Position numbers and translations under genes: made by a program
The notes under the pieces: model-generated
Told to the model about the DNA's origin: nothing
Databases searched by the model: none
What the model saw: the letters and a program-made list of their open reading frames with translations, nothing else
Shown here: piece by piece, positions 4,196 to 34,316 of the stretch
Layout: every line of letters starts with the position of its first letter
Numbering within the stretch: the stretch's first letter is position 1
Origin: a virus
Lineage: Duplodnaviria; Heunggongvirae; Uroviricota; Caudoviricetes
Length of the DNA stretch: 34,316 nucleotides
Virus record (IMG/VR): IMGVR_UViG_2737471860_000007
Reading direction: 5' to 3' (one strand)

Positions 4196-4207
4196 CACGC
4201 TACCGCC
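4196..4207 (-). promoter_or_regulatory. ops element (RfaH recruitment site) within the JUMPstart sequence of the waaQ operon leader
   Basis: Plus strand reads cacgctaccgcc; its reverse complement is GGCGGTAGCGTG, the ops consensus. Located about 50 nt upstream of the waaQ start on the transcribed strand. Confidence 0.65.
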
Positions 4208-4559
4208 CCAGGCTCAACAGCTACCTGAATACTGATACCGCACTGATATTGACGCGCTAGTGTATCACTTCTTTCGCGGCAATCCGACCCGAATGATTTT
4301 TAAGCACATTGTTGATTTTTCAATAAAGAAATCAATCAAATAAAATCATTAGCAACCATATTCTTTCACTGTTGCTCTGCGATTCCTTCCTGCACGTACA
4401 GCAGAAATCAATGAATCGCATAAAAATACAAAAAAAGTATAGATGTTCAGCAAGAATTGGCGGGTAAATTGCTATTTAAGTCAAAAACGGGAAAAGTAAT
4501 GGTAAAGCCACAGCTAAATACATAGAATCCCCAGCACATCCATAAGTCAGCTATTTACT

Positions 4560-21232: not shown

Positions 21233-23314
21233 ATGAAAGGTCGCCTGTTAGATGCTGTCCCACTCAGTTCCCTAACGGGCGTTGGCGCAGCACTTAGTAA
21301 CAAACTGGCGAAAATCAACCTGCATACCGTGCAGGATCTACTCTTACACCTTCCCCTGCGCTACGAAGATCGCACCCATCTCTACCCCATCGGAGAACTA
21401 CTGCCGGGCGTTTATGCCACGGTGGAAGGCGAAGTGCTGAACTGCAATATCTCCTTCGGCGGTCGGCGGATGATGACCTGCCAGATCAGCGACGGTTCCG
21501 GCATCCTCACCATGCGCTTTTTCAATTTCAGCGCGGCAATGAAAAATAGCCTGGCGACGGGCCGCCGTGTACTGGCTTATGGCGAAGCAAAGCGCGGTAA
21601 ATATGGTGCGGAGATGATCCACCCGGAATACCGCGTGCAGGGCGATCTCAGCACGCCAGAATTACAGGAAACGCTCACGCCGGTTTATCCAACAACGGAA
21701 GGCGTAAAGCAGGCCACGCTGCGTAAATTAACCGACCAGGCGCTGGATCTGCTCGACACCTGCGCCATTGAAGAACTCCTGCCGCCGGAACTGTCACAAG
21801 GAATGATGACGCTACCGGAAGCGTTGCGCACTTTGCACCGCCCGCCACCGACGCTACAGCTTAGCGATCTGGAAACCGGGCAGCATCCGGCGCAACGTCG
21901 TCTGATTCTGGAAGAACTGCTGGCGCACAACCTCAGCATGTTAGCCTTACGTGCCGGAGCACAGCGTTTTCATGCCCAGCCGCTGAGCGCCAATGACACG
22001 CTGAAAAATAAACTCCTCGCCGCCTTACCGTTCAAGCCAACGGGCGCACAGGCACGCGTAGTGGCGGAGATCGAGCGCGATATGGCGCTGGATGTGCCGA
22101 TGATGCGTCTGGTGCAGGGCGATGTAGGTTCCGGTAAAACGCTGGTCGCCGCCCTCGCCGCGTTGCGTGCGATTGCCCACGGCAAACAGGTAGCATTGAT
22201 GGCACCAACCGAATTACTCGCCGAGCAGCACGCCAATAACTTCCGCAACTGGTTTGCACCGCTCGGTATCGAAGTGGGCTGGCTCGCCGGTAAGCAGAAA
22301 GGTAAAGCACGGCTGGCACAGCAGGAAGCCATCGCCAGCGGTCAGGTGCAGATGATTGTCGGTACACACGCCATCTTCCAGGAACAGGTGCAGTTTAACG
22401 GCCTGGCGCTGGTGATTATCGACGAACAGCATCGTTTTGGCGTGCATCAGCGTCTGGCATTGTGGGAGAAAGGCCAGCAGCAGGGCTTCCATCCGCATCA
22501 GTTGATCATGACCGCCACGCCGATCCCCCGCACGCTGGCAATGACTGCGTATGCCGATCTCGATACCTCGGTGATAGATGAGCTGCCGCCAGGCCGCACG
22601 CCAGTGACTACGGTCGCTATTCCTGATACCCGCCGTACCGACATCATTGACCGCGTGCGCCACGCCTGCATAACTGAAGGTCGTCAGGCATACTGGGTTT
22701 GTACGTTGATTGAAGAGTCGGAATTGCTGGAAGCGCAGGCGGCGGAAGCTACCTGGGAAGAGTTGAAACTGGCGCTACCAGAGTTGAACGTTGGCCTGGT
22801 ACACGGGCGGATGAAACCTGTCGAGAAACAGGCGGTGATGGCGTCGTTTAAACAAGGTGAGCTACACCTGCTGGTTGCCACAACCGTTATTGAAGTCGGC
22901 GTTGATGTGCCTAACGCCAGTCTGATGATTATCGAAAACCCGGAGCGTCTGGGTCTGGCGCAGTTACACCAGCTTCGCGGGCGTGTAGGTCGTGGTGCGG
23001 TGGCTTCTCACTGCGTGCTGCTCTACAAAACGCCGCTCTCCAAAACCGCGCAAATTCGGCTGCAAGTGCTGCGCGACAGCAACGACGGTTTTGTGATTGC
23101 ACAGAAAGACTTAGAGATTCGCGGACCGGGTGAACTGTTAGGTACGCGTCAGACGGGTAATGCTGAGTTTAAAGTGGCGGATTTACTGCGCGATCAGGCG
23201 ATGATCCCGGAAGTTCAGCGCCTGGCGCGACATATTCACGAACGTTACCCACAACAAGCAAAAGCCCTGATAGAACGCTGGATGCCGGAGACGGAACGTT
23301 ACTCCAACGCATGA
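21233..23314 (+). CDS. recG: ATP-dependent DNA helicase RecG
   Basis: ATG at 21233 gives 693 aa MKGRLLDAVPLSSLTGVGAALSNKLAKINLHTVQDLLLHLPLRYEDRT...; Walker A GDVGSGKT and DEQH box present. The supplied ORF is extended 11 codons. Confidence 0.95.
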   Translation: MKGRLLDAVPLSSLTGVGAALSNKLAKINLHTVQDLLLHLPLRYEDRTHLYPIGELLPGVYATVEGEVLNCNISFGGRRMMTCQISDGSGILTMRFFNFSAAMKNSLATGRRVLAYGEAKRGKYGAEMIHPEYRVQGDLSTPELQETLTPVYPTTEGVKQATLRKLTDQALDLLDTCAIEELLPPELSQGMMTLPEALRTLHRPPPTLQLSDLETGQHPAQRRLILEELLAHNLSMLALRAGAQRFHAQPLSANDTLKNKLLAALPFKPTGAQARVVAEIERDMALDVPMMRLVQGDVGSGKTLVAALAALRAIAHGKQVALMAPTELLAEQHANNFRNWFAPLGIEVGWLAGKQKGKARLAQQEAIASGQVQMIVGTHAIFQEQVQFNGLALVIIDEQHRFGVHQRLALWEKGQQQGFHPHQLIMTATPIPRTLAMTAYADLDTSVIDELPPGRTPVTTVAIPDTRRTDIIDRVRHACITEGRQAYWVCTLIEESELLEAQAAEATWEELKLALPELNVGLVHGRMKPVEKQAVMASFKQGELHLLVATTVIEVGVDVPNASLMIIENPERLGLAQLHQLRGRVGRGAVASHCVLLYKTPLSKTAQIRLQVLRDSNDGFVIAQKDLEIRGPGELLGTRQTGNAEFKVADLLRDQAMIPEVQRLARHIHERYPQQAKALIERWMPETERYSNA

Positions 23315-24165
23315 CCAGACTCATCACAAGACAAGTCACGCAGTAAATCTTCAATCTGGATAGTGAGGATATCCATTGCCTCATACGCATCCTGTGCAAT
23401 TCGCGCCGCCATTGCGCCTTCCGGTTCACCACGCAGAATTTCAGCCGCTGCCTGTACGCCAGCCACAATCATTTCAGGTGTTAACATTTGGCGAAGAAAA
23501 GCGCGATTATCAGAGGACCAGCCATCTTTATGGCCTAATGGATGCCCCCAGCCTATCCATTCTTGCGACCATAACGGATTGGCTTCTATGGGATAAATTA
23601 GATGCGCGGCATACTGAATAGCACACACCGCTTTTCCTGGCGTATCCAGCGCCCACCAGCGCGACCAGAGAGAATGAATTAACGGCGCGGCCCCACCCAG
23701 AGTATTGAACACCGCCAGCCAGCAAAGAACGTTATTGAAACCACGCTCGTTATCCATACGCTGCAACGCGGTGTCCAGTAAAAATTGCCGTACCTGCTGG
23801 CGTTGGGAAGCATTCATCATCTCCTGCCAGAGATAGGGCCGACACAATGCCTTCATTAAGGATTCTTCGAAGTGATCACCATAACCGCCAGCTAAAACGG
23901 TTTCATGCCATTGCGCCAGGCAGAGCGGAAACAGATAGCGAAACAACTCTATTTGCATCGGTTCGTTATAAACGAGATTGAGTACATAGTAAGCACTCAA
24001 ATCCCATACGCTGATCTGCTGCCACTCTTTAGCCGCCAGCGCCTTGAGTTCGGCATCTGCGTAATCAAATTCCGTTTCCCATACACAGAGCACTGGCGGC
24101 TCATCACCAAAAATATGGCGACAGTGTTCACGTAGCGTTTCCGGTTCCTTCCGACGCTTTTTCAT
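23299..24165 (-). CDS. Hypothetical protein (288 aa), unknown function; Trp-rich, predicted soluble
   Basis: ATG at 24165 lies 2 nt after the gltS stop codon (24168-24170) on the same strand, suggesting translational coupling. Its 3' end overlaps the recG 3' end by 16 nt in antisense. 14 Trp in 288 aa; no obvious hydrophobic transmembrane stretch or signal peptide. Codon usage is broadly E. coli-like with some rare codons (ATA, CTA, CGG, CGA). No recognisable motif from memory. Confidence 0.6.
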   Translation of the reverse strand: MKKRRKEPETLREHCRHIFGDEPPVLCVWETEFDYADAELKALAAKEWQQISVWDLSAYYVLNLVYNEPMQIELFRYLFPLCLAQWHETVLAGGYGDHFEESLMKALCRPYLWQEMMNASQRQQVRQFLLDTALQRMDNERGFNNVLCWLAVFNTLGGAAPLIHSLWSRWWALDTPGKAVCAIQYAAHLIYPIEANPLWSQEWIGWGHPLGHKDGWSSDNRAFLRQMLTPEMIVAGVQAAAEILRGEPEGAMAARIAQDAYEAMDILTIQIEDLLRDLSCDESGHALE

Positions 24166-24167
24166 TT

Positions 24168-25373
24168 TTAACCGGCAAAAATCGGCAACATTAAATACAG
24201 CTTAATCACCAGCGCATTGACGATATCGATAAAGAACGCACCGACCATCGGCACCACCAAAAACGCCATGTGCGACGGGCCAAAGCGTTCAGTGATCGCC
24301 TGCATGTTGGCGATTGCCGTTGGCGTTGCACCGAGGCCAAAACCACAGTGACCCGCAGCCAGCACTGCCGCATCGTAGTTTTTGCCCATCATGCGCCAGG
24401 TAACGAAGATGGCATACAACGCCATGAAGATGGTCTGTACCACCAGAATCGCCAGCATCGGCAGCGCCAGCGAAGCCAGCTCCCACAGTTTCAGCCCCAT
24501 CAGCGCCATCGCCAGGAACAACGACAGGCTTACGTTACCCAGCACGGATACCGCACGCTCAAAGACGCGGTAAAAGCCCATCATTGACAGACCGTTGCTC
24601 AGAATCACGCCAACAAACAGTACACAGACGAAGGTCGGCAGTTCAAAAGCAGTGCCAGCCAAAAGTTGCGCAACAATTTTCCCCACCGTCAGGCAGATAG
24701 CAATCAGCGCGATAGTTTCAATCAGCACCAGCGAGGTGATCATGCGGCCCACATCCGGCTTTTCAAACGCCGTCGGGACTTCCTGGTCATCCGGAATACC
24801 GTTCGGCGTGGTGGAGTGTTTCACCAGATAGCGCGCCACCGGACCGCCAATCAAGCCGCCCAGCACCAGACCGAACGTTGCACAGGCCATCGCCACTTCC
24901 GTCGCATTGGTGAAGCCATAACGTTCAATGAACAATTTACTCCACGCAGCGCCCGTACCGTGACCGCCGGAAAGCGTAATAGAACCGGCCAACAGCCCCA
25001 TCAGCGGATCAAGCCCTAACAGGCTAGCCATACCAATGCCAATGGCATTTTGCATCACCAACAGACCAACAACCACAATCAAGAAGATGCCAACCACACG
25101 CCCACCGGCACGCAAACTGGCAATGTTGGCGTTCAGGCCAATGGTGGCGAAGAAAGCCAGCATTAACGGATCGCGCAGGGACATATCAAAGTTGACTTCC
25201 CAGCCCATGCTTTTTTTCAGTACTAGTAGCGCCAGCGCCACCAACAAACCACCCGCAACAGGTTCCGGTATGGTGTATTTCTTCAAAAAGGAGACGGAAT
25301 GGACCAACTTACGCCCGAGCAGCAACGTCAGCGTTGCGGCAACAAGCGTTGCTAAAGTATCGAGATGAAACAT
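24168..25373 (-). CDS. gltS: Sodium/glutamate symporter GltS
   Basis: 401-aa translation MFHLDTLATLVAATLTLLLGRKLVHSVSFLKKYTIPEPVAGGLLVALALL... matches GltS; polytopic membrane protein. Confidence 0.95.
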   Translation of the reverse strand: MFHLDTLATLVAATLTLLLGRKLVHSVSFLKKYTIPEPVAGGLLVALALLVLKKSMGWEVNFDMSLRDPLMLAFFATIGLNANIASLRAGGRVVGIFLIVVVGLLVMQNAIGIGMASLLGLDPLMGLLAGSITLSGGHGTGAAWSKLFIERYGFTNATEVAMACATFGLVLGGLIGGPVARYLVKHSTTPNGIPDDQEVPTAFEKPDVGRMITSLVLIETIALIAICLTVGKIVAQLLAGTAFELPTFVCVLFVGVILSNGLSMMGFYRVFERAVSVLGNVSLSLFLAMALMGLKLWELASLALPMLAILVVQTIFMALYAIFVTWRMMGKNYDAAVLAAGHCGFGLGATPTAIANMQAITERFGPSHMAFLVVPMVGAFFIDIVNALVIKLYLMLPIFAG

Positions 25374-32929: not shown

Positions 32930-33024
32930 GGAAGATCGTCGTCTCCGGTGAGGCGGCTGGACTTCAAATCCAGTTGGGGCCGCCAGCGGTCCCGGGCAGG
33001 TTCGACTCCTGTGATCTTCCGCCA
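32930..33024 (+). tRNA. selC: tRNA-Sec (selenocysteine, UCA anticodon)
   Basis: 95-nt sequence GGAAGATCGTCGTCTCCGGTGAGGCGGCTGGACTTCAAATCCAGTTGGGGCCGCCAGCGGTCCCGGGCAGGTTCGACTCCTGTGATCTTCCGCCA matches remembered E. coli selC, including the long variable arm and CCA end. A TATAAT hexamer lies at 32893-32898 upstream. Confidence 0.93.
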
Positions 33025-34316
33025 AACTTCATCCAGCCAGTTCCGAGACACTCCATAAAACCCTTTATATTCAATATGATGAATAATCATCTTATCCGTA
33101 ATAGTCCGAGAACGTCTCCCTGAATCCGCGAAAAATATGTATAGTAATGTGTATAGAATTTTTATACGCAGTTTTCAGTTATACATATGGCTCTAACCGA
33201 TATACAAATCAAACGCGCAAAACCACAAGACAAACCATATACATTGAATGATGGGCAAGGTCTGTCATTGCTTATCAATCCCGATGGCTCGAAAGGATGG
33301 CGTTTCCGTTTCCGGTTTGCAGGGAAAGCGCGGTTAATGTCATTTGGTAGTTACGACCTTGTAAGCCTCGCGGAAGCACGTGAGAAACGCGATACGGCTC
33401 GTAAGCAGGTAGCAAACGGCATAGACCCAGTTGAAGAACGTAAAGCCCAAAAGCTGGCACAGAAACTCTCAACAGAGAACTCATTCGAAGCCATATGTAG
33501 AGAATGGCACACTAACAAAGCGGATCGCTGGACAGTGGCCTACCGCGAAGAAATCATTAAAACATTTGAACAAGATGTATTCCCATTCATTGGTAAACGC
33601 CCTATAAGTGAAATCAAACCGTTAGAACTGCTTGAAGTATTGCGACGAATAGAGAAACGTGGAGCACTAGAGAAGACCAGAAAAGTGCGGCAAAGATGCG
33701 GGGAGGTCTATCGCTATGCGATCATAACTGGTCGCGCTGAATACAATCCAGCGCCTGATTTGGCTATCGCTCTGGCCGTTCCTAAGCAAGAACACCATCC
33801 TTTTTTATCTGCTGAAGAGTTACCTCATTTTATTCGGGACCTTGAAGCGTATACCGGTAGCCTTATCACCAAAAATGCTACAAAGATAGTCATGTTAACT
33901 GGTGTAAGAACACAGGAGATGCGATTTGCTACGTGGGAAGAGATTGACCTTGAGAAAGGTATATGGGAGATCCCCGCTGAACGGATGAAAATGCGTAGGC
34001 CTCATATTGTTCCTTTATCCGCTCAGGTAGTTGATCTCTTTAAACAGCTCAAGCCTATCACCTATAATTACCCATACATTTTTATTGGCAGAAACAACCG
34101 TAGCAAACCGATTTCGAAAGAAAGTGTGTCACAAGTAATTGAGTTACTTGGTTATAAAGGACGAGCTACTGGCCATGGTTTTAGACATACAATGTCGACT
34201 ATTTTACATGAGCAAGGATACGATAGTAAATGGATTGAATTACAGCTTGCACATGTAGATAAAAATTCGATACGTGGTATTTATAACCATGCGCAAGGTA
34301 GTGACTCCAACTTACT
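33025..34316 (+). mobile_element. Left end of a selC-inserted genomic island (integrase module); extent beyond window unknown
   Basis: An integrase gene in the same orientation starts 162 bp 3' of the tRNA. In the K-12 arrangement, as I recall it, selC is followed by setC/yicL instead. selC is a well-known island insertion hotspot. Confidence 0.6.
33187..34316 (+). CDS. int: Partial CDS (C-terminus beyond window): P4-family tyrosine integrase adjacent to selC
   Basis: Hand translation from ATG 33187: MALTDIQIKRAKPQDKPYTLNDGQGLSLLINPDGSKGWRFRFRFAGKARLMSFGSYDLVSLAEAREKRDTARKQVANGIDPVEE... through ...TGVRTQEMRFATWEEIDL...GRATGHGFRHTMSTILHEQGY...LQLAHVDKNSIRGIYNHAQG. Has the N-terminal arm-binding domain typical of P4-like integrases, the conserved Arg box and the H-x-x-R box. 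Open to the window end, so absent from the ORF track. AT-rich compared with flanking core genes. Confidence 0.85.
   Translation, partial: MALTDIQIKRAKPQDKPYTLNDGQGLSLLINPDGSKGWRFRFRFAGKARLMSFGSYDLVSLAEAREKRDTARKQVANGIDPVEERKAQKLAQKLSTENSFEAICREWHTNKADRWTVAYREEIIKTFEQDVFPFIGKRPISEIKPLELLEVLRRIEKRGALEKTRKVRQRCGEVYRYAIITGRAEYNPAPDLAIALAVPKQEHHPFLSAEELPHFIRDLEAYTGSLITKNATKIVMLTGVRTQEMRFATWEEIDLEKGIWEIPAERMKMRRPHIVPLSAQVVDLFKQLKPITYNYPYIFIGRNNRSKPISKESVSQVIELLGYKGRATGHGFRHTMSTILHEQGYDSKWIELQLAHVDKNSIRGIYNHAQGSDSNL

Follow-up and report, generated by a model that had tools for sequence, protein, structure and literature searches.

The open reading frame between recG and gltS

The subject of this work is an open reading frame (ORF) of 288 amino acids (aa) that lies between recG and gltS in the IMG/VR virus record IMGVR_UViG_2737471860_000007, whose full length of 34,316 nucleotides (nt) was analysed and is referred to here as the window. 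The ORF occupies positions 23299..24165 on the minus strand, starts with ATG and is predicted to encode a soluble all-alpha solenoid from an undescribed family, which we propose as a candidate orphan immunity protein. Upstream of it on the same strand, in Escherichia coli and in Salmonella, is gltS (24168..25373, minus strand), which encodes the sodium/glutamate symporter, while recG (21233..23314, plus strand) is the convergent neighbour and is constant in every ORF-carrying Enterobacteriaceae locus. The coordinates bear out the preliminary description of this DNA, in which the ATG was placed 2 nt past the gltS stop; at the junction (24163..24170, minus strand), the TAA at 24168-24170 is followed by the spacer AA and by the ATG at 24163-24165. 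The distance between the recG and gltS stop codons, which had been given as about 850 bp and nearly filled by the ORF, was measured as 853 bp and is filled by the ORF, which additionally reaches 16 nt into the 3' end of recG. In this tail-to-tail overlap (23299..23314), the ORF ends in H-A-L-E-stop and recG in S-N-A-stop. All four of these terminal recG codons are one base off those of the ORF-less alleles, with the encoded end unchanged.

Simple promoter and terminator scans had no match at the junction of gltS with the ORF, nor any where the ORF meets recG, and the Rfam scan found no RNA family in the recG-gltS interval. The gltS promoter is the probable source of ORF transcription in E. coli, and the co-transcription and translational coupling of the two genes are a reasonable inference. 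No Shine-Dalgarno-like sequence is found upstream of the ATG, and the coupling would proceed by termination and reinitiation. Plus-strand ORFs were also considered as the true gene of the interval and were rejected; all of them are 81 aa or shorter, and the codon-level conservation follows the minus-strand frame.

The window allele is identical to RefSeq WP_000747337.1, as found in strain 120899, and the allele of BL21(DE3) and O157:H7 (WP_000747329.1) differs from it in two residues (V53E and H164R); both are annotated as 'hypothetical protein'. No literature was found on WP_000747329 or on a 'hypothetical protein' beside recG and gltS in O157. The 90%-identity cluster that contains the ORF has 9280 members and is represented by a GltS protein, and 401-aa GltS sequences and the 288-aa protein are mixed in it, possibly because of fused gene calls. 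This GltS-represented cluster may account for the exact E. coli protein being missing among the listed homologue matches.

The protein contains 13 Trp residues (4.5%) rather than the 14 counted previously, which still makes it Trp-rich, and has an isoelectric point of 5.0. The GC content at third codon positions of its gene is 0.50 compared to 0.63-0.65 in the neighbouring genes. The earlier proposal of a helical, cytoplasmic protein that lacks a transmembrane segment holds; no hydrophobic segment was detected (maximum KD19 1.48), and the acidic product is predicted to be soluble and cytoplasmic, a location in which it might meet a toxin. The AlphaFold2 model (pLDDT 88, pTM 0.87) is an all-alpha, right-handed-looking solenoid of 15 helices, the best structural neighbours of which are MMS19, TOG domains, Pds5 and exportins. 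Any likeness to the HEAT/ARM-type alpha-solenoid repeat proteins would concern the predicted helical solenoid of the model.

The view that no family could be assigned was upheld by every collection that was searched. Neither the ORF nor any of 32 diverse relatives matched a Pfam model, the sole NCBIfam match was noise (10.8 bits against a cut-off of 817), none of the PADLOC-DB 2.0 families matched at E<=1, PHROG gave no match, and a sequence-profile search of the PDB returned only noise from designed proteins (E 0.014). An exhaustive hidden Markov model (HMM) search of 1.84 billion representative proteins recovered 438 clusters at E<=1e-3, of which 110 were at E<=1e-30. Fragments aside, the listed members are about 270-330 aa long, are matched over most of their length and carry no extra domain. 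Judged by these matches, the ORF is a member of a sizeable undescribed family of stand-alone proteins. The family motifs are VWExxFD, LQP(D/E)LFxYLFPxCLxxW, WxxWW...PGxA and ENPxF...W..N..FL, and among the polar residues D34 and N220 are invariant or nearly so family-wide, as are Q71 and E249 in most members. The diversity of the broad family alignments (A2 and A4) was too great to scan them for patterns.

Alleles in E. coli and the locus in other genera

The ORF was found in 1911-1912 of 5426 complete E. coli genomes (35%), always on the chromosome and in a single copy, and 1873 of the copies were at least 99% identical to that of the window. This is consistent with the accessory single gene in a core interval that had been described. 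Carriers include BL21(DE3), O157:H7 and O145:H28, in which it is annotated as WP_000747329.1, while K-12 and about 65% of E. coli lack it, which excludes a core gene that is common to K-12 and essentially all E. coli. No genuine plasmid copy was found; the three 'plasmid' matches, which include a 4.8-Mb record and a 40-kb record carrying recG, look like mislabelled chromosomal sequence.

Two ORF-less alleles stand opposite the ORF, and each of the three forms accounts for about one third of the 5426 genomes. In the first, the spacer is 33 bp long and consists of a GC-rich hairpin followed by a T-run (L002 1816-1848). In the second, which is the type of K-12, DH5alpha and C600 and is present in 1873 genomes, the spacer is 168 bp long and the same hairpin is split by a 135-bp REP-like insert in its loop (L001 1816-1983). 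Both spacers correspond to positions 23315-24167 of the window, and the hairpin forms a bidirectional terminator, GGCGGCGGT...ACCGCCGCC plus the T-run. The description of recG and gltS as convergent and nearly abutting in K-12 therefore fits the 33-bp allele, but the K-12-type spacer itself measures 168 bp.

Past the gltS stop, the ORF-less spacer reads CCG ATG AAG CGG CGG TCTTCTC ACCGCCGCC TTTT, and its ATG AAG CGG CGG matches the first codons of the ORF, ATG AAA AAG CGT CGG, at 11 of 12 positions. The M-K-(K)-R-R start is also kept in genera in which gltS is not the neighbour, and because of this conservation the spacer can be derived from the ORF by deletion. On the basis of the 11-of-12 match, the ORF-less alleles are most likely deletions rather than the ORF being an insertion, and the upstream arm of their hairpin would be made of the first codons of the ORF. 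The ORF had originally been called inserted, a description that agrees neither with this retained start nor with the position of its homologues at the recG end in at least six genera. A 51-nt island of ORF sequence in E. coli HH97 (L087 2920-3085, NZ_CP116409.1) was considered as a deletion remnant and was rejected because long poly-G runs flank it. In this genome, recG is annotated as a pseudogene and the interval is replaced by the poly-G runs, which is likely an assembly or sequencing artefact and was not used as evidence.

The presence or absence of the ORF is carried by a recombination tract that includes the last 300 nt of recG (23015..23314, plus strand). Between a K-12-type strain and the window, there were 24 differences in these 300 nt and five in the preceding 1200 nt, which indicates that the alleles are old and have been moved between lineages by homologous recombination.

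In other genera, homologues of the ORF are 37-71% identical to it, and they lie at the 3' end of recG, convergent with it, in at least six Enterobacteriaceae genera. Those with 47-71% identity come from Salmonella enterica, Superficieibacter, Klebsiella sp. MISC125 and Pseudocitrobacter (L015-L018 for the last three), Enterobacter sp. kpr-6 (L019) and several metagenomic Enterobacteriaceae. The 16-nt overlap with recG recurs in Pseudocitrobacter and in two metagenomic loci; in Salmonella and several further genera, recG and the homologue are free of overlap. The gene on the other side is variable. It is gltS in E. coli and Salmonella, with the same 2-nt gap, and in L005, where a relative that is 48% identical overlaps gltS by 1 nt; it is a divergent xanP in L011 and L019, and glpX in Superficieibacter, L013 and Klebsiella sp. 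MISC125. Altogether, gltS is absent upstream in L004, L011, L013 and L015-L019, all of which keep the recG position. Because the upstream gene varies, gltS is not a conserved partner, and the functional tie to it that had been suggested was not sustained. From these positions, the gene is judged to be old at the 3' end of recG in the Enterobacteriaceae.

The ORF is a real gene under purifying selection. It cannot be regarded as a chance open frame because it has homologues across genera, its dN/dS ratio (nonsynonymous to synonymous substitution rates) shows constraint and the AlphaFold2 model is confident. Between genera, dN/dS was 0.07-0.24, with 0.16 and 0.19 in the two pairs in which dS was unsaturated; within E. 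coli, it was 0.22-0.27, as estimated from the alleles that lie furthest apart, which differ by 20 nt and 9-10 aa. The possibility that the carriers would show no conservation or purifying selection was thereby discarded. In the same genome pairs, dN between genera was 0.23-0.53 for the ORF and 0.036-0.060 for the adjacent recG, and thus the protein changes 6-10 times faster than RecG. Moreover, L005 and L019 carry very divergent ORF alleles beside an ordinary recG, and deep allelic lineages exist at one locus. Among public sequences there are also versions with frameshifts or internal deletions (P0002, P0014 and P0022 with 269, 73 and 26 members, respectively). These fit a dispensable gene that decays in some lineages, and assembly errors could explain some of them.

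Relatives that follow Rhs proteins and other contexts

Four relatives (P0167, P0196, P0116 and P0195, from L032, L078, which is the same as L079, L080 and L083) are encoded by genes that start 1-28 nt after an Rhs-repeat gene on the same strand. The two complete upstream genes were identified as Rhs by the Pfam models DUF6531, RHS_repeat, TEN_YD-shell and RHS, and the two truncated genes share 41-56% identity with these. In all four Rhs proteins, the motif PxxxxDPxGL is followed by one common C-terminal domain of 106-107 aa, which is predicted to be a toxin domain (L032 7669-7989, L078 7679-7999, L080 2120-2437 and L083 1435-1755). Its consensus, ...FMFRDKR..GGGGTHGLV.RIREQILG..RPGS.GW.THE..I..QQ.ALR..., contains the conserved motifs GGGGTHGL, R(I/N)REQILG and (T/S)HE. 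This 107-aa domain had no match in Pfam, including the Imm, Tox and Ntox models, in the PDB or among plasmids. The three parts of these loci diverge together; identities were 44-65% for the Rhs cores (the last 450 aa before the C-terminal domain), 54-76% for the toxin domains and 42-60% for the downstream genes. The gene that directly follows an Rhs C-terminal toxin domain is its immunity gene (RhsI-type; Poole et al. 2011, PMC3150448).

A fifth locus (L081 1-3336; GCA_001312805.1, BBEO01000135.1) encodes an Rhs protein with a different C-terminal domain of 111 aa, then a 224-aa ORF and, behind it, a family member of full length, which had been shortened to 249 aa by the gene caller. This order looks like the outcome to be expected if an older toxin-immunity module has been displaced by a newer one and its immunity gene has stayed behind. 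In L078, the Rhs gene lies between two VgrG genes, which is a type VI secretion context. Rhs proteins are delivered by type VI secretion systems (T6SS).

The Rhs-linked proteins were also recovered by the profile search from the ORF family, and a comparison of the Enterobacteriaceae clade (A1) with the Rhs-linked clade (A6) using hhalign gave a probability of 99.9% (E 1.9e-34) over 265 columns with 21% identity. The ORF is thus homologous over its full length to proteins in the immunity position. Neighbour-joining grouped the Rhs-linked proteins in a single nested clade, which belongs to the half of the family that is distant from E. coli.

The contexts of the other relatives were surveyed at loci from species-representative genomes (15) and metagenomes (45), with several more obtained by exact protein look-up. 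An all-against-all BLAST of the ORFs that flank about 60 loci revealed no recurrent partner gene, except on contigs that are duplicates or close relatives of one another. Scanning about 70 neighbouring ORFs with Pfam showed heterogeneous contexts that range from housekeeping to conflict-flavoured. The Leminorella relative lies between gapA and yeaD, which are housekeeping genes, and in a Chthonomonadaceae locus (L028) the relative is part of an array with ankyrin, NUDIX, GNAT, APH and glyoxalase genes. The Cupriavidus relative stands beside DUF6869, DUF6714 and McrBC genes (L021), and no literature was found on DUF6869. The Sulfurovum relative (L023) follows a type IIG restriction-modification gene at a distance of about 1.5 kb, others lie directly downstream of a TIR-domain gene (L053) or of NADAR genes (L055 and L062), and one is followed by RlaP and R2K ATP-grasp genes (L054).

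The relative from the Sulfurovum metagenome-assembled genome (Campylobacterota; L023 7986-8873) is 63% identical to that of Marinicella sp. W31 (Gammaproteobacteria; L024 7980-8870), and these two are closer to each other than the E. coli protein is to some of the Enterobacteriaceae copies. An identity of this height between phyla points to horizontal transfer, and family members are likely to have crossed phylum borders.

Proposed function, alternatives and the rest of the window

Based on the homology to the proteins that follow the Rhs toxins, we propose, as the best-supported reading, that the E. coli ORF encodes an orphan immunity protein against a toxin that is injected by rival bacteria. 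The cytoplasmic solenoid would bind and neutralise a related toxin domain that competitors deliver by means of Rhs proteins and T6SS, and the E. coli gene would act without an adjacent toxin, as an orphan immunity gene. It would be transcribed from the gltS promoter, and the ribosomes would reinitiate 2 nt past the gltS stop to translate it. The gene has repeatedly disappeared through deletion or frameshift, and homologous recombination in the flanking sequences moves its presence/absence alleles from one E. coli lineage to another. By analogy with the Rhs-linked clade, the E. coli clade would still neutralise a toxin. Several features that would be expected of an orphan are present. The gene has a homologue in the immunity position, is variable among strains and has no toxin adjacent to it in any Enterobacteriaceae locus; its hallmarks are patchy presence, a dN 6-10 times that of recG, deep alleles, frameshifts, the lack of a conserved partner and likely cross-phylum transfer.

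Orphan immunity genes without a cognate effector have been documented for T6SS and Rhs systems (PMC10539506, PMC12247911, PMC5361080). They comprise orphan immunities to a Serratia Rhs NADase (PMC10539506), orphan immunity genes of gut bacteria that evolve rapidly (PMC12247911) and the immunity arrays of Vibrio cholerae (PMC5361080). The ORF shares with the Rhs and T6SS immunity proteins its distant homologues after Rhs genes and a small, cytoplasmic, fast-evolving product that is not an enzyme. In contrast to them, the E. coli gene has no adjacent toxin, its product of about 290 aa is larger than most, and the protein family and the 107-aa toxin domain both lack a match in Pfam and in the PDB. 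With the described orphan immunities it has in common the missing cognate effector, the variability among strains, the rapid evolution and the exchange by recombination. However, those orphans are mostly in arrays by T6SS or Rhs loci or in mobile islands, whereas the ORF is alone between two core genes at a position that is conserved across genera. Since no toxin gene precedes it in E. coli and neutralisation by its product is a prediction, its membership among the Rhs or orphan immunity genes is provisional. The orphan-immunity kind of system is already known; what would be new are the protein family and its putative toxin partner, both of which are undescribed.

Several observations weigh against an immunity function. 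In the window, the gene upstream of the ORF is gltS and not a toxin gene, and the HMM of the toxin domain had no match in the window or in the other fetched loci. It is a single monophyletic clade that provides the link to a toxin; this clade belongs to the opposite half of the tree, and its members are only 22-25% identical to the E. coli protein. Beyond the five Rhs-linked loci, a toxin adjacent to the family member was seen in none of the loci examined. From the Enterobacteriaceae, where no search was aimed at one, no cognate toxin is known. The ORF is a lone gene at a core locus and does not belong to an immunity array, a T6SS or Rhs cluster or a mobile element, and its expression is presumed. 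Immunity specificity is usually narrow, so distant homology alone does not establish toxin neutralisation. Because there is a single distant clade, no known toxin in the Enterobacteriaceae and neither an array nor a mobile element, our confidence in the orphan immunity reading is about half.

A possible, if tentative, alternative is that the ORF encodes a stand-alone cytoplasmic scaffold or adaptor for some accessory physiology and that only one distant clade was recruited as Rhs immunity. Most of the loci with a known context have unrelated housekeeping neighbours and no toxin, the Rhs-linked clade is single and nested, and the near-invariant polar residues D34 and N220, together with the mostly conserved Q71 and E249, could mark a site other than a toxin interface. 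On the other hand, a conflict gene would better account for the patchiness among strains, the rapid change, the repeated loss and the transfer across phyla, and no ligand, enzyme or regulatory domain is detectable. More doubtful is a related proposal in which the Enterobacteriaceae clade is not immunity but a new stand-alone solenoid factor with an activity of its own, the presence and absence of which in E. coli would be a balanced polymorphism; such a factor could, for example, sense or sequester a phage or host molecule, or modulate RecG or convergent transcription.

The preliminary description had pointed to immunity-like or defence-like singletons. The immunity-like part is supported to the extent that a distant clade follows four Rhs toxins, but the defence-like part is not, and we consider it improbable that the ORF by itself confers anti-phage defence or abortive infection. 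Its status as an accessory singleton within a core interval would suit such a role, as would the distant relatives near McrBC, type IIG restriction-modification, TIR, NADAR, and RlaP with R2K ATP-grasp genes. However, these neighbourhoods are not consistently defence islands, no PADLOC model matched, no relatives were found in phage and viral-contig collections, and the protein is a solenoid only, with no effector-type domain such as a nuclease, NADase or pore.

A role tied to recG, either as a RecG-interacting protein or in antisense or convergent-transcription control through the 16-nt overlap and the missing terminator, is very unlikely. It is true that recG is the sole invariant neighbour in the Enterobacteriaceae, often with overlapping 3' ends, and that the ORF stands in place of the bidirectional hairpin terminator of the ORF-less alleles. 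Nevertheless, descent alone is enough to explain the adjacency: the two genes leave no spacer between them, so any rearrangement breakpoint at this site would destroy one of the pair. Moreover, the relatives outside the Enterobacteriaceae are not near recG, and the overlap is lacking in Salmonella and several other genera. A function as a regulator or assembly factor of GltS, which the 2-nt gap in E. coli and Salmonella, the 1-nt overlap in L005 and the junction without a promoter or terminator match might suggest, is just as improbable, since L015-L019 and two metagenomic contigs keep the recG position with xanP, glpX or other genes in place of gltS, about 65% of E. coli have GltS without the ORF, and the distant relatives never adjoin gltS.

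Elsewhere in the window, a JUMPstart (ops-containing) RNA element was found above the Rfam gathering threshold at 4196-4234 on the minus strand, beside the lipopolysaccharide (LPS)-core (waa) genes, where such elements are expected. On the waa side, positions 1-1176 could not be aligned with strain 120899, while the next 31.8 kb are 99.6% identical to it, which suggests a different LPS core-type gene in this part. At the other end, the selC gene for tRNA-Sec (32930-33020) is followed by an open frame at 33186-34316 that starts MALTDIQIKRAKPQDKPYTLNDG... and runs off the window. We take it to resemble a P4-type integrase, which would mark a genomic island at selC. Strain 120899, otherwise 99.6% identical, has only a 129-bp rhuM remnant at the selC site.

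The ORF separates strains that are in wide use or of clinical importance, namely BL21(DE3), O157:H7 and O145:H28, from K-12, yet it has had no name, family or literature. What is unusual about it is that a lone copy has been placed since ancient times in a core interval, that three alleles exist there and that it is present in BL21 and O157 and not in K-12, which makes the proposal directly testable. The three-allele polymorphism is also a clear example of how the loss of a gene may leave a terminator that is made from the gene's own first codons. If the orphan immunity reading is true, the family would be a new immunity family of at least 438 clusters that is paired with a new 107-aa Rhs toxin domain, and isogenic BL21 and K-12 alleles together with toxin co-expression would provide a simple test system. 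It would also mean that genes for interbacterial defence can last for a long time as lone genes in core intervals, where searches based on islands miss them.

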